In this document: in pieces, positions 2,503 to 26,075 of the stretch
How the letters are laid out: each line of letters starts with the position of its first letter
Numbering within the stretch: the first letter of the stretch is position 1
From: a virus
Taxonomy: Duplodnaviria; Heunggongvirae; Uroviricota; Caudoviricetes
DNA length: 26,163 bases
Reading direction: 5' to 3' (one strand)
Virus record (IMG/VR): IMGVR_UViG_2541047960_000003
The notes under the pieces: generated by a model
Seen by the model: the letters and a program-made list of their open reading frames with translations, nothing else
Databases searched by the model: none
Told to the model about the DNA's origin: nothing
Made by a program: the position numbers and the translations under genes

Positions 2503-2949
2503 TTAAAGGCGTTTAAAAAGCTCAGTGGGAGTGGTGGCTGGAGTTTTCGCCATCAGACAACATTTCAATACCACATCAGCACCACACTCAATGACAATAT
2601 GCTCAATGCCGCCCCGGATGATCAGAGTGTGCGTCTTCCGGTTGTAGCTGTACTCTGCACCATCAGCAAACCGGGTTCCCCGGATATTTTTGTCACTGAA
2701 CGGTGGTTTATCGACGTCTGAATACACCGCGCCCAGAATAACACCATCCTCGCCGTTGGCATCGAGCAGCACCTCAACCTGCTCCCCCACGTCAGGGAGC
2801 CAGTAATCTTTGTTATCCTGGGTATTGCGCTGCAGCACGTTAAGCCAGTTTGTGCGCAGGTTATCGCATTCAGGCAGACGAACGCGGGCCTGAACCCTGT
2901 CGGCATCAACGGCACTGACCGTACCGACCTGACGAGTGACACCAGTCAT
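2503..2949 (-). CDS. baseplate spike/assembly protein V-like
   Basis: 148-aa ORF immediately after the D-like gene (ATGA-type overlap at 2946-2949); P2 order D-V-W. Confidence 0.55.
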   Translation of the reverse strand: MTGVTRQVGTVSAVDADRVQARVRLPECDNLRTNWLNVLQRNTQDNKDYWLPDVGEQVEVLLDANGEDGVILGAVYSDVDKPPFSDKNIRGTRFADGAEYSYNRKTHTLIIRGGIEHIVIECGADVVLKCCLMAKTPATTPTELFKRL

Positions 2950-8628: not shown

Positions 8629-8704
8629 GATTGTGCTCCTGTGTAAGTTCAGGGCAGTATGTCGGGAGAAGCGCGTGACGGATATTAAAGGAGATTAAGA
8701 AGAA

Positions 8705-8718
8705 GGGGCCGGAGCCCC
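8705..8718 (-). terminator. candidate attenuator/intrinsic terminator hairpin between tail tube and chaperone genes
   Basis: GGGGC-CGGA-GCCCC inverted repeat at 8705-8718; on the minus-strand transcript it is followed by UUCUUCUUAAUCUCCUUU. Confidence 0.3.
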
Positions 8719-9009
8719 TGTGATGTCAGCAAGTGCGAAACCCCTTGCAGTTACGCAGGAAAGCGATGAGAAGCGTCTTTCCCTCAGATTTGTCGGTGCC
8801 GGAGAACCAGTGGTCGGGAGGCTCCTATGCTTCAATCAAATCCGCCAGTTTGCGGGCCTTTGAACGTGTGCAGTCAATCGGGTCATTGGTTTTACGGGTA
8901 TTAAAAAGGGTTTCCACCCCCGGAATATCAAGGAGGGTAAACCACGTACCATTTGACATGCCCAGTGCCGCACATCGTCCTCCTTTATCCGTCAGTTCAA
9001 CACTCACCG

Positions 9010-12458: not shown

Positions 12459-13412
12459 TTATTTACTGATACCGGTAATGAGATACCCGGCATCGCCACC
12501 AACCACGGCGACTTTGTAGATATCGGTATAACGGCAGTACTTCACCTTGCCACCGGCTCCGTCGTATTTGTCGGCAACAGGCATCCCCTTACGACGCAGG
12601 GTGTAGCCGAAGGACGGCTCGTTCTCGTCCGCGCTGTCCGCCCCCGGCTGCGGTTTGCCGACATAGTGCAGCATCAGATTGTCTCCCCAGATATCCGCCG
12701 GCACGCTGTTCTTATCCATTGCCGCTTTCATGGACGGCAGGGAGACTGGGGCACCGATGACGATCTCTTCGATCTGAAAGAGGTCCTGCAGGATTTCTGT
12801 GGTGATGCGCTTGCGTTCGTTGGCTCCGATGGCGGCCTGAATCGCCGGGTGGAACTTCAGCAGCGCCATCACGCCGGCCCCCATGGTCATCAGGTTAGGA
12901 CGCAGCCCCGTGGCCGTACGGACCGCTTCCATACCGGCTTCAATCACCCCGATGGGGTCCCCCTTACCACCGGCCCAGCGATCACTGGCTGTCAGTTTTT
13001 TGACGTGCCCGGTACGGTAGACCTTTTCATCCTGAGCCAGACGGGCAGCGATAAGTTCACGGCGCAGGTTCACGCCATTCGTGGCGCGACGGATGGCCTT
13101 GCTCTCTTCGTTAAACATGGACTCCGCCTGCTCGCGATAGTCCACCGGCGCAGCCAGATCGTGTTCACCCAGCACCAGGTCCAGCGTGCCTGTTTTTTCA
13201 CGGACCAGAACATTGCTGTCCGCCCCGACGGCACGCTCGGTGTCATATTCCACAAAGGCGGTTTTCCCGAAGGTCGGTACACGCACGCCTTCCTTGTCCG
13301 TCAGCACGACGGGGAAAATACGTTCGCCGATGAATGCGGCATTTTTATAGCCACGGGCGATACTGGTCAGTACCGGATCAACGACACGTTTACCTTTTAA
13401 GTAATCAGACAT
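12459..13412 (-). CDS. major head (capsid) protein, Mu T-like
   Basis: 317-aa ORF after the protease/scaffold gene; size and order (F-G-I-T) match the Mu head module. Confidence 0.75.
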   Translation of the reverse strand: MSDYLKGKRVVDPVLTSIARGYKNAAFIGERIFPVVLTDKEGVRVPTFGKTAFVEYDTERAVGADSNVLVREKTGTLDLVLGEHDLAAPVDYREQAESMFNEESKAIRRATNGVNLRRELIAARLAQDEKVYRTGHVKKLTASDRWAGGKGDPIGVIEAGMEAVRTATGLRPNLMTMGAGVMALLKFHPAIQAAIGANERKRITTEILQDLFQIEEIVIGAPVSLPSMKAAMDKNSVPADIWGDNLMLHYVGKPQPGADSADENEPSFGYTLRRKGMPVADKYDGAGGKVKYCRYTDIYKVAVVGGDAGYLITGISK

Positions 13413-13426
13413 GCTCTCTCCTTAAA

Positions 13427-13894
13427 TTACAGGCAGCGTGCGACAGCAGCCTCATAGCTGATGCCTTCTTTTTTGGACAGGGCCACTGCTTTCTGATGCA
13501 GGGCCAGACGCTCAGGATCGGCTTCCGCAAACTCTGCCACATCCACCTTCACCGTGTCGCCGACACGCTCTTTTGTGGCCTGTTCGGCGAAATTCATCAC
13601 CGGCTCCCCGTCGGAGAGCAATGAACGAAAGGCGGTGGCCAGCGGTGTGCGGCTTTCCCCCTCAGCAAACTCCACCGGCTTGTCGCCACCGGCGACGGCA
13701 TCCAGCAGGGCAACCACCACGGAGGAGGCGCGGGGAGCCAGACGGCCCTCTGCGACCAGTTTTTCTGCAAAGGCCACATTGTCCTTATGCAGTTGCTCCT
13801 GTCTGACCTGTGCATCACGCGCATCGCGATCAGCAGCCTGCTGCTTCAGGCGGCGGTTCTCCTCCTGAAGGGCTTCAATCTCTTCTTTTGTCAT
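13427..13894 (-). CDS. candidate nested scaffold protein (Mu Z-like) from internal in-frame start
   Basis: Internal ATG at 13892-13894 preceded by GAGGAA + 6 nt; would give a 155-aa coiled-coil product co-terminal with the I-like protein. Confidence 0.3.
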   Translation of the reverse strand: MTKEEIEALQEENRRLKQQAADRDARDAQVRQEQLHKDNVAFAEKLVAEGRLAPRASSVVVALLDAVAGGDKPVEFAEGESRTPLATAFRSLLSDGEPVMNFAEQATKERVGDTVKVDVAEFAEADPERLALHQKAVALSKKEGISYEAAVARCL

Positions 13895-14542
13895 CGATGA
13901 TTCCTCGTTACTTGCGGAAGACGGCCCCGGGCCTGTCTCACTGAATTGTGCACCTGCTGCATCCTGCGACAGTGTGTCGCGGTACGCCTCTTCGCGCAGA
14001 CTGTTGAGCTGCCATTCCGGCAGGACTTTTTCTGCCTCGTCCAGACTGAAGCGGGCGATCAGAAAATCGCGCAGCTTTCCCCACAGGGAGGCATTCGTGA
14101 TGGCCTGCCAGTCGGCGAACTCCACCACACCTTCTTCCTGCTCACTGAAGGACACCTGTTTCAGCCCCTTGATGGAAGGTGGCTGTGCCCCGAGAAAGCC
14201 CACATGGCGAAGGTAGAGCACGCCGGGCTTCGGATTGGACGGTGAATCCGGGAGGTAGAAAGAGGCGGACACTTTTTTGAATCGTCCGTCGGTGACCATC
14301 TCAGCAAACTGCGGGTCCAGCTGGGCAGGCTCTGCCATCAGATCGACGCCGCTGAGCGACAGGGCTTTCACCCAGCCCCACGCCGGGTCTTCCGTTCTGG
14401 GATGACCAATCACGAGTGGTGCTTCATGGACGGACGGGTCATAGGCTTTCACGCAGGCGGCAAGATCGTCTGGCGTGAACGGCAGTTTTTTGCCGTGCAT
14501 ATCGGTATGAGTACCGGCTTTAAAAATGTGAATGGCTGACAT
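13427..14542 (-). CDS. head maturation protease/scaffold, Mu I-like
   Basis: 371-aa ORF; globular N-terminal half, coiled-coil charged C-terminal half (EEIEALQEENRRLKQQAADRDARDAQVRQEQL); position upstream of major head gene. Confidence 0.75.
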   Translation of the reverse strand: MSAIHIFKAGTHTDMHGKKLPFTPDDLAACVKAYDPSVHEAPLVIGHPRTEDPAWGWVKALSLSGVDLMAEPAQLDPQFAEMVTDGRFKKVSASFYLPDSPSNPKPGVLYLRHVGFLGAQPPSIKGLKQVSFSEQEEGVVEFADWQAITNASLWGKLRDFLIARFSLDEAEKVLPEWQLNSLREEAYRDTLSQDAAGAQFSETGPGPSSASNEESSMTKEEIEALQEENRRLKQQAADRDARDAQVRQEQLHKDNVAFAEKLVAEGRLAPRASSVVVALLDAVAGGDKPVEFAEGESRTPLATAFRSLLSDGEPVMNFAEQATKERVGDTVKVDVAEFAEADPERLALHQKAVALSKKEGISYEAAVARCL

Positions 14543-14678
14543 TTTGCTGTCCCGCGTTATGTTGTCGGAGACAGTTTGTGAGAAATGCAGGCCCGGCGAT
14601 TTTAATCTGCTTTAGAAAACATCAGGGGAGAAGGACAGGGAAAGCAATGCGGTGAACCGGAGGCGGTTATAAAACAGA

Positions 14679-14710
14679 GGCTGTAAAGCCTTTATAAAGG
14701 TAATACAGCC
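14679..14710. promoter_or_regulatory. 32-bp near-palindrome in the G/I intergenic region; candidate internal late promoter or regulator site
   Basis: GGCTGTAaagCCTTTA|TAAAGGtaaTACAGCC: perfect 12-bp palindrome CCTTTATAAAGG nested within outer arms GGCTGTA/TACAGCC sharing one centre; lies in the only sizeable gap (14543-14756) of the head module. Confidence 0.3.
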
Positions 14711-14756
14711 CCTCATTCTCTGGCAATGATAAATCACCCGCCTGAAGAGAGAAAAC

Positions 14757-15215
14757 TCAGCGACGGGCCGCTGATTCAAGATGGCGGACAATGGTATCGA
14801 GGATGGGGATTACCACTTCAGGCTGTAGTTCTCCATCCCCCGTCACCGACAGGAACGGGCGGGCCGGAAGTTCAACAGACTCATTACGCCCCGTTTTACC
14901 CCCGAACTGGTGAATGGCACCGTAAACAACGTTGGTCCCCACAACAGCCTGCCGGTCGTCATGGTCGGTTGATACTGACCCCATCAGACGCCCGGTATCC
15001 TGCAGTGTCTGCCCGTCACGTTCTTCCGCTGCCAGCGAGGGCATCCACCCCGGACGCCCCTCATCAAGAAAGTTAAACTGTGTTTCCGCCAGCAGGGTTC
15101 CGGCGATTTTGTGCATCGCGGGCTCCAGGTCTGTGGCAGCAAGATCCAGCGCACGGAGGCTCCGGCGCAGGGATTTATCGTTAATGGTGATACTGACCAG
15201 GTTATCGGAAGCCAT
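14757..15215 (-). CDS. virion morphogenesis protein, Mu G-like
   Basis: 152-aa ORF immediately downstream of the F-like gene; size and position match Mu G. Confidence 0.65.
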   Translation of the reverse strand: MASDNLVSITINDKSLRRSLRALDLAATDLEPAMHKIAGTLLAETQFNFLDEGRPGWMPSLAAEERDGQTLQDTGRLMGSVSTDHDDRQAVVGTNVVYGAIHQFGGKTGRNESVELPARPFLSVTGDGELQPEVVIPILDTIVRHLESAARR

Positions 15216-15217
15216 TG

Positions 15218-16039
15218 TTATCCTCTCAGTTCCTGTTGTGCCAGTGGCTGAAGCGTACCCTGATAGCGGGCCAGGTCGGGACGGTATGCTGCCCCCGGTG
15301 CATAAGACCAGCCGACGTCGGTGGTCACCTTCGTGGTGCCGGTATTAAAGGTGGCCACGTTCCGCATTTCGCCGGTTTTCTCTGAGACCAGTTTCAGTTC
15401 CTGGCCCATGGCAGAGCCGGAGCTGATAACCTTCAGGCCACGGGCACGTACATCCGCCGCACTCAGGGCAATCACACTACAGCGGCAGCGCCAGCCGTTC
15501 GGCGGGTAAAATGCCTGCCAGAACGGGTCATCCCAGCGCAGCACCAGACCATGCAGCGCCAGATGGCTCCTGCGGGTATGGCTGTCGTTGATGCCGGTAT
15601 ACATCCAGTACGGCCTGTCGTCGACGTTTTCCATCTGTTCCGCCCAACGACCGGCGCTGTAGAGTACGGACATATTGGTGCGAAAGATGGTATCGAGCCG
15701 CCACGGACTGCCCTGCTGAATGGTGACCGGCTCACCCGTTACCGGGTCAGTCGTGTCACGTGGTCCCCACCATCCCTTACGCTTCAGCACCGGCTCCAGC
15801 TCCTGCCGGAACCAGCGATCGGTTTTTCCTTCATCGACAGCCTGCTGCAGTGCCCCGCGAATATCTTCCAGGATATCCAGGCGGGTCACTTTAGCAACGG
15901 TAAAGGCGCGGGCATGGGCCTCCTGCCACATTTCTTCCCAGTCCCAGGTAATCTGATACCCTTTGGACTTCAGGTAGTTGATTGCCCGCTTCGGGGGAAG
16001 CGTCATGCAGTACGCCAGTTCAGCCGTTGTCACGCTCAT
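15218..16039 (-). CDS. minor head protein, Mu F-like
   Basis: 273-aa ORF directly after the portal gene; conserved terminase-portal-F triad. Confidence 0.75.
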   Translation of the reverse strand: MSVTTAELAYCMTLPPKRAINYLKSKGYQITWDWEEMWQEAHARAFTVAKVTRLDILEDIRGALQQAVDEGKTDRWFRQELEPVLKRKGWWGPRDTTDPVTGEPVTIQQGSPWRLDTIFRTNMSVLYSAGRWAEQMENVDDRPYWMYTGINDSHTRRSHLALHGLVLRWDDPFWQAFYPPNGWRCRCSVIALSAADVRARGLKVISSGSAMGQELKLVSEKTGEMRNVATFNTGTTKVTTDVGWSYAPGAAYRPDLARYQGTLQPLAQQELRG

Positions 16040-17516
16040 GCAGACGCCCCCAGATATTTGTCACAAAGAGAATGCGGGCCAGCCGCTCCTGCAGATCGTC
16101 CGTGTTCATCTGAGGGTAGAGCTCCGCCAGTTCGCCCAGCAGCTCAGACGGGTTAACCCCATTTTCGACCCGCCTGAACAGAGGTGCCAGGACGGGTTCC
16201 AGCGTGCCATTTAACGCGCCTCCGTTCATCAGAATGTCCAGCGCGTCGTCAAGCTGCTGCTGAGCCTGAATATCAGCATCAATCGCCTCGGCAAATGACA
16301 GCGGCAGCATGTTATTCTGGCGTTCCGACGGTGGTGTCTCGTCAATATCGCCGTCCTGCAGTTGGTACTCACGCTTGAAGTACTGCGGGGTCAGACGCAG
16401 ACCCGCCCGGGTGAGTTTTTCGTCGCGGGTGGCACGGGTGTCATCAATGGCCTCCTGTTCCCACATGGCCCAGACCGGACACGGCACATCGCCGAAGTTC
16501 AGGGTGACCACCGTTCTGATGACCTGATTCACTGCCGCCTGAATGATGTCCGCATCCGCATCGCGGATATCAGCCGTTACCTCCAGCCCGGCCTGTGCAG
16601 AGGCCTTGTTACTGTTCGCTTCCGTGGTCTGATTCTGACCGAGTAATGCAATGGAGATCTCACTGCGTGACAGTGTGATCAGCTCGCGAAATACCTCGCT
16701 GCTGTCTGCCTTGCCATCCGCTGCCCTGAGCTCAATACTGCTGTCATCGGGGATGGCGGCCACCGCGTCCTCCACCATCTGCTCCATGGAGTCCAGCAGT
16801 TTTTCAATCTCTGCATCATTTGCGCCCCTCGGGTGCTTACCGATCACCCACGGGGAGCCAAACTTTTCGGCAAAGCGGAGCCAGAATTTCATCCCGCCTT
16901 TCTTGAAGGCGACCGGCCAGAAGCACATGGACAGGTCCGGGAAACCGTAAGGATTGTCATACGAGGCATCCTGTGCCGGCACCACGAATTTTGACGGTGA
17001 CAGCAGCTCACCCTCCACACCCGCATCACGCGCCCGGAAGCGCAGGCAGTTGTCCGTATCAAACTGAAACCACTCAGGCGGTTTGCCGACAATATCCGTC
17101 ACCGCCCACGACCTGACCGAACGGCCCCACATGATTTCACAGGGCTGATACCCGTAGAGCACGGCATCGCTCATTTCACCGATGATGCGGGACAGATCCA
17201 GATCGTCGAGCATGTCGCGGATGAAACGGAAGACCCGGGCAGAGGCGTGACCACGCTCCAGTCCACGCTCCAGCGATTTGAGCGCTGCTTTACGTCTGCG
17301 GATACAGCCCCCGACCAGCGGGTCGGTGCGCAGTTCGCGGTAGATACGGATATCCCGTCCCTGAGCCTTGAGAATGGGATCAGGATTGGGCAGATACATG
17401 CCCAGTCCGTAAAAGTCGATCGCGCGGCTGCGGGAGGCAATCTGCGCGGTCAGTGATTTCTGAGGCTCAGAAAAAGCAACAAATTCATCGGGTGAAACCC
17501 AGATACCCCTCGCCAT
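16020..17516 (-). CDS. portal protein (Mu gp29-like)
   Basis: 498-aa ORF; ATGA overlap with terminase stop at 17514-17518; size and position. Confidence 0.8.
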   Translation of the reverse strand: MARGIWVSPDEFVAFSEPQKSLTAQIASRSRAIDFYGLGMYLPNPDPILKAQGRDIRIYRELRTDPLVGGCIRRRKAALKSLERGLERGHASARVFRFIRDMLDDLDLSRIIGEMSDAVLYGYQPCEIMWGRSVRSWAVTDIVGKPPEWFQFDTDNCLRFRARDAGVEGELLSPSKFVVPAQDASYDNPYGFPDLSMCFWPVAFKKGGMKFWLRFAEKFGSPWVIGKHPRGANDAEIEKLLDSMEQMVEDAVAAIPDDSSIELRAADGKADSSEVFRELITLSRSEISIALLGQNQTTEANSNKASAQAGLEVTADIRDADADIIQAAVNQVIRTVVTLNFGDVPCPVWAMWEQEAIDDTRATRDEKLTRAGLRLTPQYFKREYQLQDGDIDETPPSERQNNMLPLSFAEAIDADIQAQQQLDDALDILMNGGALNGTLEPVLAPLFRRVENGVNPSELLGELAELYPQMNTDDLQERLARILFVTNIWGRLHERDNG

Positions 17517-19111
17517 CAGAATCCCTCCAGCATACGGGCCGCCTGACGACGACGGCGTGAGCTTGCCTTCACCGGCCCTTTGTTAATTTCACGGCTGGCG
17601 AAATACGCCAGCGCCAGTGCGATGGCTGAATCCCCGTGGCGTTTACCACCGTCAGCCTTTGCTTTTGAGCGTTGCTCCGGTACGCGGGGGACACCGTTCA
17701 CCACCTGAACGGCCCGCAGGTCATCCAGTGTGTCTTCATCCTTTGGTAAGTCCACCAGGTTACCGTCTTCCAGTGCAGCTTTGACCGGAGGCATATGCTC
17801 CCGGTACCAGCCTTCGGTTGGCATCACCTGCTGAACCCGGCTGGAGCCGTAGCGCTGCATGGCGTATTCAGCCAGATAGGCACCATTACCACGGGCATCA
17901 AACGCTGCACCCAGCAGACCGGGCAGGCCATCCATCAGATACCAGGTGATTTGCTCCTGCTGTCTGAACGGCACGTTACGCAGCTCCAGTACGAATGGCA
18001 CGCGTCGTACCAGGTTCTTCTCCTGCAGCAGGGGATAGTCCACCGACAAATCACCGCTACGGCCAAAGTCGCGCCCCAGGAAAGAGCGGGCATCAGTGGG
18101 GAGTGCCTCCAGCAAGGGTTTCAGATACTCATCAAGCCAGTCCTGCGTCTCGCGGAAGCGAACCTCATCAGACAGCAGTTCATAACCTTCCTTGCAGGTC
18201 AGACGCAATACCGGCGTATCAGCGGACATGCGGGACTCTATCAGGGCACGGGACAGCCAGGCACCGCCACCGTTGGCCGGAATACAGTCAAGCTCTTCGG
18301 ATGCGCCGGCACCGTAGAATTTGTACACCGATGCCATCCAGGCCTGCTCGGATGCCTCCGACCATTCCTTCCCGGTGCGCAGACAGACGCGCCGGAACAG
18401 CCCCTCAGATACGGCTTCCCGGAAAGTGATGCGATGTATGCTGCCTCCCTGACGTCCGGCACGGATATCCCCGATAAGCGTATTGAACGGATTGTCGTCA
18501 CCGTCATGGGTGGAGATAACGCGTACCTTTCCCCCCCAGATAAGCATCGCCAGCGCCGCTTTCAGCAGTTCGTCCAGTTGCTCATGGAACGCCGCTTCGT
18601 CGATAACAATAATACCCTGACGGCCACGCAGGTTAGACGGGCGGCTGGAGAGCGCAACAATACGAAAGCCGGAGTCAGGAAATTTGATGGTGTAAGTCTT
18701 GATGTGTTTGTCGTCGTCGTCCTCTTCCCAGAATCCTTCTTCAATTTCACTGGCCGCATAGTTGAATGCCCGTGCCCACATCGCACACGCCTGAATGTAT
18801 TCGACGGTCATGTCCTGGTTATAAGCGATGTAATACACATTCATCCCGCCTGCTGGCGCAGAAGAGGCGGCGGTCAGTACGTTATCGGATGCCTCAGCCC
18901 ATGTAATACCGGTACGACGGCTCTTTTCTATCACCTTAAGCGGAGAGGTGTCTGCCACCCAGCGCTGCTGGTAAGGCAACAGAACGGGAGGGGCATCCAG
19001 CGCCGAGGTATCAGGCAAAACGGGAGCAAGGTTATTCCTCCCGTCCATGGGACTCATCCCTTCGGGGCCGCCGCCAGCGGCGTTTAAAATCACTCCGGAT
19101 GATTTTGTCAT
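17516..19111 (-). CDS. terminase large subunit (Mu gp28-like)
   Basis: 531-aa ORF preceding the portal gene; acidic EEDDDDK patch and overall size typical of a large terminase. Confidence 0.8.
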   Translation of the reverse strand: MTKSSGVILNAAGGGPEGMSPMDGRNNLAPVLPDTSALDAPPVLLPYQQRWVADTSPLKVIEKSRRTGITWAEASDNVLTAASSAPAGGMNVYYIAYNQDMTVEYIQACAMWARAFNYAASEIEEGFWEEDDDDKHIKTYTIKFPDSGFRIVALSSRPSNLRGRQGIIVIDEAAFHEQLDELLKAALAMLIWGGKVRVISTHDGDDNPFNTLIGDIRAGRQGGSIHRITFREAVSEGLFRRVCLRTGKEWSEASEQAWMASVYKFYGAGASEELDCIPANGGGAWLSRALIESRMSADTPVLRLTCKEGYELLSDEVRFRETQDWLDEYLKPLLEALPTDARSFLGRDFGRSGDLSVDYPLLQEKNLVRRVPFVLELRNVPFRQQEQITWYLMDGLPGLLGAAFDARGNGAYLAEYAMQRYGSSRVQQVMPTEGWYREHMPPVKAALEDGNLVDLPKDEDTLDDLRAVQVVNGVPRVPEQRSKAKADGGKRHGDSAIALALAYFASREINKGPVKASSRRRRQAARMLEGF

Positions 19112-22014: not shown

Positions 22015-22144
22015 GTGTGTCTCCTCGTTTGGTGGAGACAGCATCACAAATACAGGGCGCAAAGGATTTTAAAGCGCGTTAAGAGAGCCGGGGATACGGG
22101 ATGTGCAGGATAAACGATGAATTATTCACAGAGGAGAATACGAT
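22015..22144. promoter_or_regulatory. divergent promoter region (late lysis/structural operon leftward; P-loop gene rightward)
   Basis: 130-bp non-coding gap between the first late gene start (22014) and the plus-strand gene start (22145); no specific promoter boxes confirmed. Confidence 0.3.
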
Positions 22145-22621
22145 ATGACGCACACACTGAATCCGGTCATCACTGTCACTGTGTCCGGTCCTGTGGGCAG
22201 CGGTAAAAGTTACGTACTGGCGCGGATAGAAGAGATGGTGAAACAGGAACTCGGAAACAGCGTCATTGTCGATGCTGCTGACGTGGAGAATGAGCGCCGT
22301 ATGAATGGCGAAGATCTGACGACCTGGCAGAAGCCACGGGGTGGCACAGTGATCAGGCTAGAGGAATACACGGGACAGGGCCTGTTGTCATACGGCGAGG
22401 AGCGTATCTGTCGGACGAATGAGCTGCTGGATGTTATATGCCCCACGGGCCGGCAACCCTGGATACTGCCCGATGCACTGCATGCCACCATTGCGGCACT
22501 GATGACAGTTTACGATCAGGAGCTGCTCATGAAGGAGTTACGTAAACTCACCGGTCAGCCAACAGAATGTTGTTCGTCTCCGAAGTACGGCAAACAGGAA
22601 AACGCCCCGGATAATCCTTAA
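22145..22621 (+). CDS. small P-loop (Walker A) protein, possible small kinase-fold protein
   Basis: 158-aa ORF; SD GAGGAG 8 nt before ATG; VITVTVSGPVGSGKSYV Walker A at residues 15-22, then VIVDAAD acidic motif about 20 residues later. Confidence 0.5.
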   Translation: MTHTLNPVITVTVSGPVGSGKSYVLARIEEMVKQELGNSVIVDAADVENERRMNGEDLTTWQKPRGGTVIRLEEYTGQGLLSYGEERICRTNELLDVICPTGRQPWILPDALHATIAALMTVYDQELLMKELRKLTGQPTECCSSPKYGKQENAPDNP

Positions 22622-22640
22622 GATACCTCCTGAACAGAAA

Positions 22641-22656
22641 CAGCCCTGAAGGGCTG
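22641..22656 (-). terminator. candidate intrinsic terminator ending the repressor-operon transcript
   Basis: CAGCCC-TGAA-GGGCTG hairpin 2 nt after the stop of the 196-aa gene; on minus-strand RNA it is followed by UUUCUGUU; on plus-strand RNA it is followed by A-rich sequence, so it is unidirectional. Confidence 0.4.
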
Positions 22657-22658
22657 CA

Positions 22659-25385: not shown

Positions 25386-26075
25386 ATGGGACGCACCAAA
25401 TCACCCGTTAACACTGAACTGAATGTTGAGGTTCCGCTGTCAGATAACATCAATGTCAATTTGAACGCTATGACACAGCATCGCATGGAAATTATGCAGC
25501 AGTTTGGTGATGGACTGCCTTATGAACGTGATCGCATTGTTCACGAAGCACGTTTTTATATGGCGCAGAGTGCTGAATCTATGCTGGAAGCGGGTAAGCG
25601 GCTGATCATCTTAAAAGAAAATGAGCCACACGGTGATTTTACAAACATTTTAGAAAATGAACTCGGACTTGCACCACAAGTTGCTCGCCGCATGATGCAA
25701 GCCAGTATGAAGTTTTTGGGAGAAGGTGATGAGCCAACAAAACGCTCAACGTTGAGCGTTTTGGGGAAAGCCAAACTGTACGACCTGATGGTTCTGGATA
25801 ATGAAGAACTTGATGAATTGGCCGACGGCGGCACAGTTGCCGGCCTGACGCTTGACGACGTTGATCGCATGTCAGTACGTGAATTGCGTCAGGCCCTGCG
25901 CGAAGCGCGCGAAACCAACGCAGCACAACAGCGCGTACTCGCTGACAAAAATGAAAAAATAGACTCACTCTCCACCAGACTGGAGAAGAAATCCCGTATT
26001 CAGCCGCCTGAGCCTGATGAAGAGGTTAAGAAGCTGCGGGCGGAAGTGACAGCATTAGCGGTTGAGGCGGAATGA
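25386..26075 (+). CDS. conserved early-region protein of transposable prophages (DUF3102-like by recall)
   Basis: 229-aa ORF with strong SD TAAGGAGTAATCA before ATG; charged helical C-terminus; stop overlaps a following ATG (ATGA at 26072-26075). Confidence 0.5.
   Translation: MGRTKSPVNTELNVEVPLSDNINVNLNAMTQHRMEIMQQFGDGLPYERDRIVHEARFYMAQSAESMLEAGKRLIILKENEPHGDFTNILENELGLAPQVARRMMQASMKFLGEGDEPTKRSTLSVLGKAKLYDLMVLDNEELDELADGGTVAGLTLDDVDRMSVRELRQALREARETNAAQQRVLADKNEKIDSLSTRLEKKSRIQPPEPDEEVKKLRAEVTALAVEAE

Follow-up and report, generated by a model that had tools for sequence, protein, structure and literature searches.

The DNA analysed here, a window of 26,163 nucleotides, belongs to a BcepMu-type transposable prophage, a Mu-like element of E. 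coli. Its positions 14543-14756 form an intergenic gap that is the positional counterpart of the G-I intergenic region of phage Mu. Genes around the gap lie on the minus strand, and on that strand the gap runs from the TGA stop codon of a G-like gene (14759-14757) to the ATG of a 371-aa gene (14542-14540), so that the original prediction of a 214-bp gap between these coordinates is exact. The same prediction had called it the only sizeable non-coding gap of the head module, which agrees with the RefSeq annotation of the near-identical IAI39 prophage, where no other gap in the lysis/head block exceeds 60 bp. The upstream gene (14757-15215, minus strand) is a Mu G-like virion morphogenesis gene with a Pfam Phage_tail_S match (E 1.5e-22) and is the last of the upstream late operon. 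The IAI39 RefSeq annotation carries the same Mu G-like gene. The downstream gene (13427-14542, minus strand) opens the next late operon as a head protease/scaffold gene, the equivalent of Mu I/Z; the 371-aa product has no Pfam match, and tblastn shows it to be homologous to BcepMu gp32/33 and to proteins of phiE255, B3 and RcapMu described as "head maturation protease / Mu I-Z equivalent".

Several minor features accompany the main ones. A consensus terminator scan finds a small terminator-like hairpin, TCAGCGGCCCGTCGCTGA, at 14757-14774 on the minus strand, which takes in the G stop codon and has GTTTTCTCTC after it; its conservation says nothing about a terminator role because the sequence is coding. 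A block reading GGCGGGTGATTTATCATTGCC (14722-14742, minus strand) is conserved in lineages a and c and partly in b, and forms a hairpin in lineage c; its resemblance to the core of the Mu strong gyrase site (SGS) is no better than chance. A 41-aa coding sequence annotated in this gap in KP12 was rejected as a gene, given indels among relatives and a start codon that is not conserved. A transposase end-repeat was rejected as well: the prophage ends carry G(C/A)GATAAATG and the gap carries TGATAAATC, while GATAAAT occurs four times in the window, as chance predicts. The BcepMu gap likewise lacks BcepMu's own end motif. A literature search with the core and box sequences described below returned nothing relevant.

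The gap carries a Mor/C-family activator box, CTAAAGCAGATTAAAAT, of the form TAA-N6-TTA, at 14599-14615 on the minus strand. With a PWM trained only on sequences from outside the window, this box scores 30.0 bits against a shuffle maximum of 15.8, and it is invariant in alignment A3. The -10 hexamer CAAACT (14573-14578, minus strand) follows at the 20-nt distance that is fixed at all four late promoters, with A at position 2 and T at position 6 invariant in relatives, and transcription is predicted to start near 14566 on the minus strand. A consensus scan of the minus strand of the gap shows no canonical sigma-70 promoter, and there is no -35 hexamer. Box and -10 together bear out, at the level of sequence, the suggestion of an internal late promoter at the position equivalent to Mu P_I; that this promoter is active and depends on a Mor-type protein is what its motifs suggest.

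With the box PWM, exactly four places in the 26 kb exceed the shuffle maximum, and each lies at a late-operon start. The three sister promoters, also on the minus strand, lie upstream of the holin gene (22040-22082; box TTAACGCGCTTTAAAAT, 20 nt, GATGCT; 19.3/16.6 bits), upstream of a tail-assembly gene (8656-8698; box TTAATCTCCTTTAATAT, 20 nt, CATACT; 16.2 bits) and at the baseplate V-W junction (2474-2516; box TTAAACGCCTTTAATAT, 20 nt, AATACT; 19.2/14.7 bits). The V-W junction promoter is identical in IAI39 and PhiKM, and the terminator scan places a terminator hairpin (8719-8704) directly upstream of the tail-assembly promoter. All four promoters of the window share the 20-nt spacer and a hexamer of the form nAnnCT. 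BcepMu and the Pasteurella phage AFS-2018a have matches at the same four positions, with the hexamers TATACT, TATTCT, TAAACT and TAATAT. A candidate activator is encoded outside the window, at the end of the early operon, in the near-identical IAI39 prophage: its single Mor-family protein, WP_001281695.1, matches Mu Mor (31% identity, E 5e-16) and Mu C (37%, E 5e-15) in BLASTP.

Overlapping the -10, alignment A3 reveals a leader hairpin, CTGTCTC...GGGACAG (14547-14574, minus strand), in which the Shine-Dalgarno region of the protease gene (GGGA, 14553-14550) pairs with the -10/discriminator segment. On A3, 90% of the cells of this hairpin are paired and two pairs have changed on both sides, a covariation that supports the predicted pairing. 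Since the 5' arm overlaps the -10/discriminator, only transcripts started upstream could mask the Shine-Dalgarno sequence.

Between the G stop codon and this promoter lies the nested 32-bp palindrome, exactly as claimed, at 14679-14710 (plus strand), with the structure GGCTGTA-aag-CCTTTATAAAGG-taa-TACAGCC. It extends to a 10-bp outer stem (14676-14713), and it is the longest imperfect palindrome that a repeat search lists for the window. Dyad symmetry by itself is weak evidence; 13 of 16 positions of the 32-mer pair, a level reached somewhere in 12 of 100 whole-window shuffles. Four perfect 12-bp palindromes also occur in the window. As sense-strand RNA, the minus strand of 14676-14713 forms a nested hairpin, AGGGGCUGUA-uua-CCUU-uaua-AAGG-cuu-UACAGCCUCU, which begins 43 nt past the G stop codon on the transcribed strand. 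Its minimum free energy is -19.6 kcal/mol, compared with -9.3 +/- 2.6 for shuffled sequences (z -3.9), and none of 200 shuffles folded as well. Directly 3' of the hairpin is a GTTTTAT tract (14669-14675, minus strand) with five T in the eight-position tail window, which makes a short, interrupted U-tract (G UUUU A U). This is the best candidate for a hairpin plus T-tail within the gap.

For this lineage, then, the earlier alternative of a hairpin attenuator is reasonable, with a stable hairpin and GUUUUAU placed between a stop codon and a promoter. The hairpin is terminator-like and, judged from these elements, probably stops the upstream late transcript. Among relatives, the picture varies. 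Only the closest lineage (the window, KP12-type and L187-type sequences) retains the outer arm GGCTGTA; in most lineages (b-g) the outer stem is absent and the core is still there, and on alignment A3 only 65% of outer-stem cells are paired. In the L187 lineage the outer stem reaches 11 bp and UUUU comes after it, the hairpin survives without the T-rich tail in KP12-type relatives, and BcepMu has arms of its own (CCCGUAAAG/CUUUACGGG) followed by UUUGGUU. One hairpin pair changes from C-G through U.G to U-A across BcepMu, phiE255 and L222. In lineages d, e and f and in Ralstonia, a strong upstream hairpin stops just before the core, so that the T-run of the core would serve as its tail. Under the same criteria, lineages b, c and g, Komp_PAO1 and the Pasteurella phage have no hairpin plus tail. 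Altogether, 8 of the 16 lineages examined have the combination in some form, in two different configurations.

What persists beneath these changing arms is an asymmetric unit consisting of CTTTATAAAG, one or two nucleotides, and TTTACAG (14699-14681, minus strand; in the window, CTTTATAAAG-G-CTTTACAG). Across 62 of 63 distinct relatives, TTTATAAAG never varies and TTTACAG hardly does, and the core is also found in BcepMu, phiE255 and phages of Ralstonia and Pseudomonas. It occurs once per genome and at the genome centre, with a relative position of 0.503 in the E. coli prophage (36,885 bp, with ends set by the split lom gene) and 0.510 in BcepMu. Its distance from the activator box takes values of 64, 66, 67, 73, 76, 78, 83-87 and 92 bp without helical phasing, even in close relatives; the 66/76/86 bp of a first sample had looked phased, and a larger sample did not. 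Conservation of the dyad in related prophages, which the original prediction had made its test, therefore holds for the inner dyad, which is invariant, and fails for the outer arms, which are lineage-specific. The core is conserved on its own account, independently of the hairpin arms, and the hairpin elaborates an older element, CTTTATAAAG...TTTACAG, into a symmetric form in a lineage-specific way. Termination cannot explain this conservation, because a terminator needs no invariant loop and inner stem of 9-10 nt. Possible roles for the core are those of a site like the strong gyrase site, a protein-binding site or a terminator component.

Other readings were tried and set aside. TATAAA or TTTACA of the core has no conserved partner hexamer at a workable spacing on either strand, as a sigma-70 promoter would need, and an antisense promoter of the Mor type can be rejected too, since its -10 position is occupied by CTGGCA. 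A sigma-54 reading of GGTTCACCGCATTGC is off by one in spacing, and the sequence is not conserved in KP12. Scanning the sequence collection for TTTATAAAG-N55-85-GATTAAAA was swamped by unrelated AT-rich phages.

Taken as a whole, the gap is best read, on the minus strand, as a late-operon boundary with a probable terminator hairpin, then an activator-dependent promoter like Mu P_I and a leader, an account that we hold to be somewhat better than an even bet. Under this account, the palindrome would lie at the 3' end of the lysis/early-head transcript, where the nested hairpin and GUUUUAU would terminate or attenuate read-through. About 59 nt beyond the hairpin, an activator-dependent sigma-70 promoter without a -35 element would take over: the Mor/C-family box (TAA-N6-TTA, centred near -43.5) would recruit RNA polymerase to CAAACT, and the protease/scaffold-capsid operon would be transcribed from near 14566. 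All four promoters, this one and its three sisters, would be driven by the one Mor-family protein of the prophage. Finally, pairing of the protease-gene Shine-Dalgarno region with the -10/discriminator would leave only RNA derived from upstream translationally masked. Most of this architecture is ordinary and expected; the exception is the one conserved AT-rich core beneath the hairpin.

A different reading, which we regard as rather unlikely, holds that the core does for the BcepMu group what the strong gyrase site does for Mu, or that it is some other genome-centre DNA site, acting on DNA topology or end synapsis in replicative transposition, with the symmetry of the hairpin secondary. The annotated gyrase cut site of Mu lies in its G-I gap, at 17879 of 36717, and a gyrase site occurs between gpG and gpI in both Mu and FluMu (PMC2628397). 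The core is single-copy and central in its genomes, its distance from the promoter is unconstrained, as expected of an independent function, AT-rich blocks recur every ~10-13 bp around it, and the analogous nested hairpin of Mu falls within the right arm of the SGS. Centrality is not independent evidence, however, because conserved gene order makes the G-I gap central in all Mu-like phages. Nor is the similarity to the Mu gap significant, with a best local alignment of 22 against 17.4 +/- 2.2 for shuffles (46 of 1000 as high), and a match of GCGGGTGATTT to the Mu SGS core was discarded with a score of 17, equal to the null mean, and an inverted orientation. The sequence of the 133-bp Mu SGS fragment is given in the supplement of PMC6379681. 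Gyrase recognises degenerate sequences through indirect readout (PMC6379681), so a 9-nt invariant sequence is not what a gyrase site predicts. Moreover, central sequences of Mu-like prophages other than Sp18 failed to replace the Mu SGS (review PMC10052514). Scoring by matches to the published 133-nt consensus, whether exact or in S/W classes, did not rank the SGS high in Mu itself and was dropped for that reason. A more specific version, to which we give the same small minority weight, holds that the single-copy core CTTTATAAAG(N1-2)TTTACAG at the midpoint is a sequence-specific "centre site" that replaces the Mu SGS functionally. In that tentative version, the factor that recognises it would be gyrase, or else a phage or host protein responsible for organising the prophage domain and joining the ends for transposition. 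If so, a central organiser would be a general requirement of transposable phages, met by unrelated sequences.

The original prediction had mainly seen the palindrome as a binding site for a late-gene activator. In the form considered here, the palindrome would be an auxiliary or upstream Mor-family site that tunes the protease-operon promoter, which seems improbable. The TAAAG/CTTTA half-sites that make up the core also form the left half of the box, GTAAAGCCTTTATAAAG (plus strand) agrees with the BcepMu box CGTAAAGCCGATTAAAAG in 13 of 18 positions, and the 9-mer CGTAAAGCC stands in both box and palindrome of BcepMu. MuC sites tolerate N5-6 spacing (PMC12867686) and Mor/C proteins bind as tetramers (bioRxiv 10.1101/2025.05.02.651988), which also count for this idea. 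Against it, the box PWM gives the palindrome no score on either strand, its spacing is TAA-N5-TTA or N4 where all boxes have an invariant N6, and the MuC consensus TTAT-N5-6-ATAA is absent from 14676-14713 on both strands. The centre of the palindrome lies ~129 bp upstream of the predicted start, far from the Mor/C range, and its distance from the box varies and is unphased. Measured from the palindrome, the actual box of this promoter is 86 bp further downstream and occupies the canonical -50 to -34. A search for further CCTTTATAAAGG-like dyads upstream of other late operons found none, and the other three late promoters lack such an element. The palindrome is not itself a promoter either, because no -10 stands at the right distance on either strand.

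Lowest in our estimation, and quite improbable, is that the core serves another sequence-specific protein, either from the host (such as IHF or H-NS) or from the phage, or acts as an RNA processing or stability signal, and is thus unrelated to both termination and gyrase. Invariance of the core across hosts from Enterobacteriaceae to Burkholderia, Ralstonia and Pseudomonas, with diverging flanks, would fit such a site, as would two CTTTAYA units 10-11 bp apart, which in lineage g form the tandem CTTTATAAAG-ATTTATAAAG. IHF recognises the consensus WATCAANNNNTTR, which TATAAAGGCTTTA matches at 12 of 13 positions, but the critical C is not matched, and the fit breaks down in lineages b and g, Ralstonia and Komp_PAO1. 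Patterns for Fis, LexA, sigma-28 and sigma-54 were not seen on inspection, neither the early operator region nor the prophage ends contain anything similar, and no Rfam family matches. Compared by eye with known consensuses, none of IHF, Fis, LexA (CTGT-N8-ACAG), P2 Ogr (TGT-N12-ACA), the RfaH ops element and lambda boxA/boxB fits across lineages.

BcepMu-type prophages occur in ~12% of complete E. coli genomes (637/5,426). For this group, the late-operon boundary model adds up to a late-transcription map in which a single Mor-family activator would serve four promoters, each of defined box, spacing and -10, and which also includes candidate terminators and leaders that would mask the ribosome-binding site in foreign read-through RNA. 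Such a map is useful for prophage annotation and for predicting induction. Additionally, the genome-central core offers a handle on an old question raised by Mu, namely whether other transposable phages need a central site and what form it takes.

Compared with known systems, the late promoters of this prophage resemble the Mor/C promoters of Mu (Pm; Plys, P_I, P_P and Pmom) in having a -10 without a -35 and an activator of the Mor/C family, and each phage has four late promoters, of which one lies in the G-I gap. The Mor box of Mu Pm, GTAAAGCCGGTTAAT, is close to CTAAAGCAGATTAAAAT and stands in the same register, with the hexamer TATCCT. Mor binds a dyad from -51 to -36, centred at -43.5 (PMC4287176), and the boxes of the window end 20 nt before the hexamer just as the Pm box does (PMC4287176, PMC2582627). 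CAAACT also stands ~40 nt upstream of Mu gene I, where we infer from sequence that it is the -10 of Mu P_I. The two systems differ in that this phage has one activator where Mu has a Mor-then-C cascade, in the box itself (TAA-N6-TTA here, TTAT-N5-6-ATAA as the MuC consensus; PMC12867686), and in promoter location (lysis, I, tail-assembly and V-W here; lys, I, P and mom in Mu). The box PWM finds no match in the Mu late region, and the early region is inverted here relative to the late region, the BcepMu layout.

The likeness to the Mu G-I region is one of arrangement. Both gaps have the same two flanking genes near the genome midpoint and present the same order: an AT-rich nested hairpin of about -20 kcal/mol, a U-run, a pyrimidine-rich spacer, an activator box, the -10 CAAACT and then a leader hairpin beside the Shine-Dalgarno sequence. 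The nested hairpin of Mu (-19.8 kcal/mol, z -3.7) is followed directly by UUUUAU and lies ~31 nt upstream of Mu P_I as placed from sequence. Between the two gaps there is no significant sequence similarity; the core CTTTATAAAG...TTTACAG is absent from Mu, and gyrase binding is demonstrated for Mu only.

As in known pairs of an intrinsic terminator and a re-initiation promoter at the operon boundaries of phages, the gap has a stable hairpin with a candidate U-tract between a stop codon and a predicted activator-dependent promoter, an arrangement seen again at 8719-8656. Unlike an ordinary intrinsic terminator, the hairpin here is nested, with a 3x3 internal loop and a short U-tract, and its loop and inner stem are far more conserved than termination needs. 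The leader recalls elements of the IS10/IS50 type, which are protected from outside transcription by a fold-back that masks the ribosome-binding site. The likeness is that the leader hairpin reaches with its 5' arm into the -10/discriminator, so that only transcripts started upstream would mask the Shine-Dalgarno sequence; the context here differs, being a phage late operon whose start is predicted.

The 214-bp gap at 14543-14756 is, on the best-supported reading, an operon boundary in which a hairpin that terminates or attenuates transcription is combined with a Mor-type late promoter and a masked leader. The late genes of the window lie on the minus strand, and in transcription order they run from the terminase (17516-19111) through a Mu-type portal (16020-17516), a Mu F-like gene (15218-16039) and a Mu G-like gene (14757-15215) directly before the gap to a 371-aa gene (13427-14542) and the capsid gene (12459-13412). 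The 371-aa protein has no Pfam hits, and tblastn shows homology to BcepMu gp32/33 and to the protease/scaffold proteins of B3 and RcapMu; by sequence homology, the gene is the Mu I/Z equivalent. As annotated by RefSeq, the lysis/head block of the IAI39 copy has no other gap above 60 bp, which bears out the description of this one as the only sizeable gap. Of 5,426 complete E. coli genomes, 637 carry a prophage with more than 99% DNA identity to the window, and the identity to phage PhiKM, classified in Bcepmuvirus, likewise exceeds 99%. The layout is BcepMu-like, with the early operon on the other strand, directed away from the late genes, and carrying a Ner-like gene, a DUF3102 gene, the transposase, an ExeA-like B and, farther along, a single Mor-family gene.

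The IAI39 copy interrupts the lom gene, which fixes the prophage ends and a length of 36,885 bp. This insertion (NC_011750, about 2002012 and 2038896, outside the window; loci L011 and L022) disrupts the lom gene that belongs to a lambdoid remnant, and a short host-sequence duplication (about CAGCACAT) marks both junctions. The prophage starts with TG and ends with CA, and both ends carry G(C/A)GATA(A/T)(A/T)T repeats, as in BcepMu, which are presumably transposase-binding sites. Its far end holds a Gin-like recombinase together with an invertible tail-fibre segment. In the IAI39 copy, W and two further genes are interrupted by internal stops.

The gap was aligned first with KP12 and Phi06_2974B and then with 13 diverse relatives (alignment A3), revealing four conserved islands amid diverged DNA. 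One of them, TTTTCTAAAGCAGATTAAAA, has close matches before the holin and tail-assembly genes of the window and in the equivalent gaps of BcepMu and a Pasteurella Mu-like phage. A position weight matrix for the Mor/C-type activator box (TAA-N6-TTA), trained on non-window sequences only, finds exactly four sites in the 26-kb window above the best shuffle score of 15.8 bits, all on the minus strand: the gap itself (14619-14599; 30.0 bits; -10 CAAACT), upstream of the holin (22040-22082, matrix site 22065-22086; 19.3 bits; -10 GATGCT), at the baseplate V-W junction upstream of W (2474-2516, matrix site 2499-2520; 19.2 bits; AATACT) and upstream of the tail-assembly gene (8656-8698, matrix site 8681-8702; 16.2 bits; CATACT). 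When aligned, the four share (T/C)TAA-N6-TTAA(A/T)AT and a 20-nt spacer before these hexamers. In BcepMu and in Pasteurella phage AFS-2018a the matrix matches sites at these same four genome positions, and the Pasteurella phage hexamers are near-consensus (TATACT, TATTCT, TAAACT, TAATAT).

The Mu middle promoter Pm reads GTAAAGCCGGTTAAT followed by TATCCT, in a register identical to that of the window promoters. On Pm, the dyad bound by Mor spans -51 to -36, with its centre at -43.5; neither Pm nor the Mu late promoters have a -35 element beside their -10 element (PMC4287176, PMC2582627). The Mor-family protein of the prophage shares 31% identity with Mu Mor and 37% with Mu C. The four shared sites, the Pm register and this protein together place a putative activator-dependent equivalent of P_I, the Mu internal late promoter, at 14615-14573; its predicted start is near 14566. 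In Mu, CAAACT is found about 40 nt ahead of gene I, where it is probably the -10 of Mu P_I; a 10-bp match between Plys and P_I (PMC4461284) supports this placement. At the level of sequence, the box and the -10 element bear out the general idea of the original prediction, a P_I-like control region. Two features lie beside these promoters. Compared with IAI39 and PhiKM, baseplate gene V of the window (2503-2949, minus) has a 169-bp deletion at about 2540-2550 that shifts the frame, so V stops at a TAA within the V-W promoter box; this prophage copy is probably tail-defective. A lone plus-strand gene (22145-22621, 158 aa, RefSeq 'ABC transporter ATPase') occupies a moron-like position between the lysis promoter and the repressor-side operon.

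Directly past the -10 hexamer, the gap and holin promoters both carry GTCTCC. In the gap, CTGTCTC (14574-14568) pairs with the segment that contains the Shine-Dalgarno sequence, GGGACAG (14553-14547); this pairing holds in 90% of cells on A3, where two pairs have changed on both sides. The predicted start falls immediately beyond the 5' arm, so the hairpin could form only in RNA arriving from upstream and, if that start is correct, would keep read-through RNA untranslated. The holin leader (22015-22039, minus) likewise pairs its Shine-Dalgarno region with GTCTCC and, on the same proviso, would mask read-through from the repressor-side operon.

At 14679-14710 lies the palindrome GGCTGTA-aag-CCTTTATAAAGG-taa-TACAGCC, exactly as originally described. 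Its symmetry is unimpressive by itself: 13 of 16 positions pair, a value equalled somewhere in 12 of 100 shuffles of the window, which also contains four perfect 12-bp palindromes. It is counted real because it is the longest imperfect palindrome listed by a repeat search of the window, because its sense-strand fold is stable and because its core, an asymmetric unit at 14681-14699, is conserved. In its sense-strand (minus) fold, the palindrome reaches a 10-bp outer stem and a 4-bp inner stem (-19.6 kcal/mol, z -3.9), a stability matched in 0 of 200 shuffles.

That the palindrome is itself the late-gene activator site of the gap promoter is contradicted by its position (centred 86 bp upstream of the box centre and about 129 bp before the predicted start), by the box matrix, which gives it no score, by its half-site spacing (TAA-N5-TTA versus an invariant N6 in every box), by its uniqueness, with no CCTTTATAAAGG-like dyad before other late operons or elsewhere in the 36.9-kb prophage or BcepMu, and by the lack of helical phasing between core and box across 79 related loci (63 distinct sequences), close relatives included. 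Core-to-box distances at these loci take values of 64, 66, 67, 73, 76, 78, 83-87 and 92 bp, and the phased 66/76/86-bp series of a first small sample disappears in the larger one.

Elsewhere, a 26-bp perfect palindrome, CAAAACGCTCAAC-GTTGAGCGTTTTG (25738-25763, plus), is embedded in the early DUF3102 gene, a short way ahead of the transposase gene; by chance, about 4e-4 such palindromes would be expected per window. In the homologous gp10 of BcepMu (L013, 7035-7064), a perfect palindrome of 30 bp, TTCAAAAGCGGCGTT-AACGCCGCTTTTGAA, shares this shape but differs in its inner sequence. The DUF3102-gene palindrome looks like a conserved cis site in a coding region, possibly an enhancer, operator or parS-like site.

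The suggestion of a hairpin attenuator is a reasonable reading of the palindrome in this lineage. The hairpin starts 43 nt past the G stop codon, has the 3' tail G-UUUU-A-U and is the best hairpin-plus-T-tail candidate within the gap. Parallels in relatives favour a terminator: in the L187 lineage an 11-bp outer stem precedes UUUU (-22.1 kcal/mol), in BcepMu a hairpin precedes UUUGGUU, and in four further lineages the core directly follows a strong upstream GC hairpin, with CCTTTAT or TTTTAT as its tail. Against a terminator, half of the lineages lack a hairpin-plus-tail by the same criteria, and KP12-type relatives keep the hairpin and have lost the T-tract. The tail promoter is preceded by a textbook terminator, GGGGCUCCGGCCCC plus UUCUUCUU (8704-8719, minus), adjoining its box, and termination followed by re-initiation at an activator-dependent promoter looks like the usual arrangement in these late regions. 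A second clear intrinsic-terminator-like hairpin (22640-22657, minus) lies past the repressor-side operon and before the lysis region.

Termination gives no reason for the invariant loop and inner stem. The core sequence TTTATAAAG occurs in 62 of 63 distinct upstream sequences, and its right flank, (G/C)(N)TTTACAG, varies hardly more. On the left, the outer arm GGCTGTA is confined to the lineage of the window itself (window, KP12-type, L187-type); elsewhere its place is taken by unrelated sequence, in one lineage by a tandem CTTTATAAAG-ATTTATAAAG. On A3 the outer stem is paired in just 65% of cells and the inner stem is invariant, so the expected conservation of the dyad extends to its inner part and not to the outer arm. 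The one sequence without the core, L182 (1-110, IMGVR_UViG_3300010395_000014), retains the Mor box, -10 and leader, but its sequence becomes unrelated about 45 bp before the box, where the contig begins; either the prophage is rearranged or the assembly breaks there. Beyond these sequences, BcepMu, phiE255, one Ralstonia phage and one Pseudomonas phage have the core as well, next to proteins of only 42-50% identity. BcepMu surrounds it with a different symmetric extension, CCCGTAAAG...CTTTACGGG, in which one pair reads C-G in BcepMu, U.G in phiE255 and U-A in L222, as fits sense-strand RNA pairing. With lineage-specific arms around a widely kept core, the 32-bp nested palindrome is, from these alignments, an elaboration peculiar to its lineage, built on an older and asymmetric element about 19 bp long. 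A further block, GGCGGGTGATTTATCATTGCC (14722-14742, minus), lies 17 nt past the G stop codon and is conserved in several lineages; in lineage c it supplies a hairpin with its 5' arm and loop.

The core, invariant, single-copy and genome-central, is the one piece that the operon-boundary picture leaves over. A live possibility is that it has a role like that of the Mu strong gyrase site (SGS) or acts as another genome-centre site. The SGS is necessary for efficient replicative transposition and must be central (PMC10052514, PMC3820752, PMC2628397). The core lies at 18,554 of 36,885 bp in the IAI39 copy (relative position 0.503) and at 18,738 of 36,748 in BcepMu (0.510), in the same gap that in Mu holds the SGS, cut at 17879/17880. 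However, arithmetic from genome coordinates puts the G-I gap at the centre of all Mu-like phages (0.47-0.57), as follows from conserved gene order, and the similarity between the window and Mu gaps is at chance level. A substitute gyrase-motif scan fails its own positive control. The inverted GGCGGGTGATTTATCATTGCC resembles the SGS core GCGG(C/G)TGATTTTATGCC, a match at chance level in a shuffle test.

Mu itself bears on both the genome-centre and the operon-boundary readings. Its G-I gap contains a strikingly similar nested hairpin, with a 9-bp outer and a 4-bp inner stem (-19.8 kcal/mol, z -3.7). This hairpin lies in the right arm of the SGS, which favours a genome-centre site. It runs straight into UUUUAU and lies about 31 nt before the putative Mu P_I.
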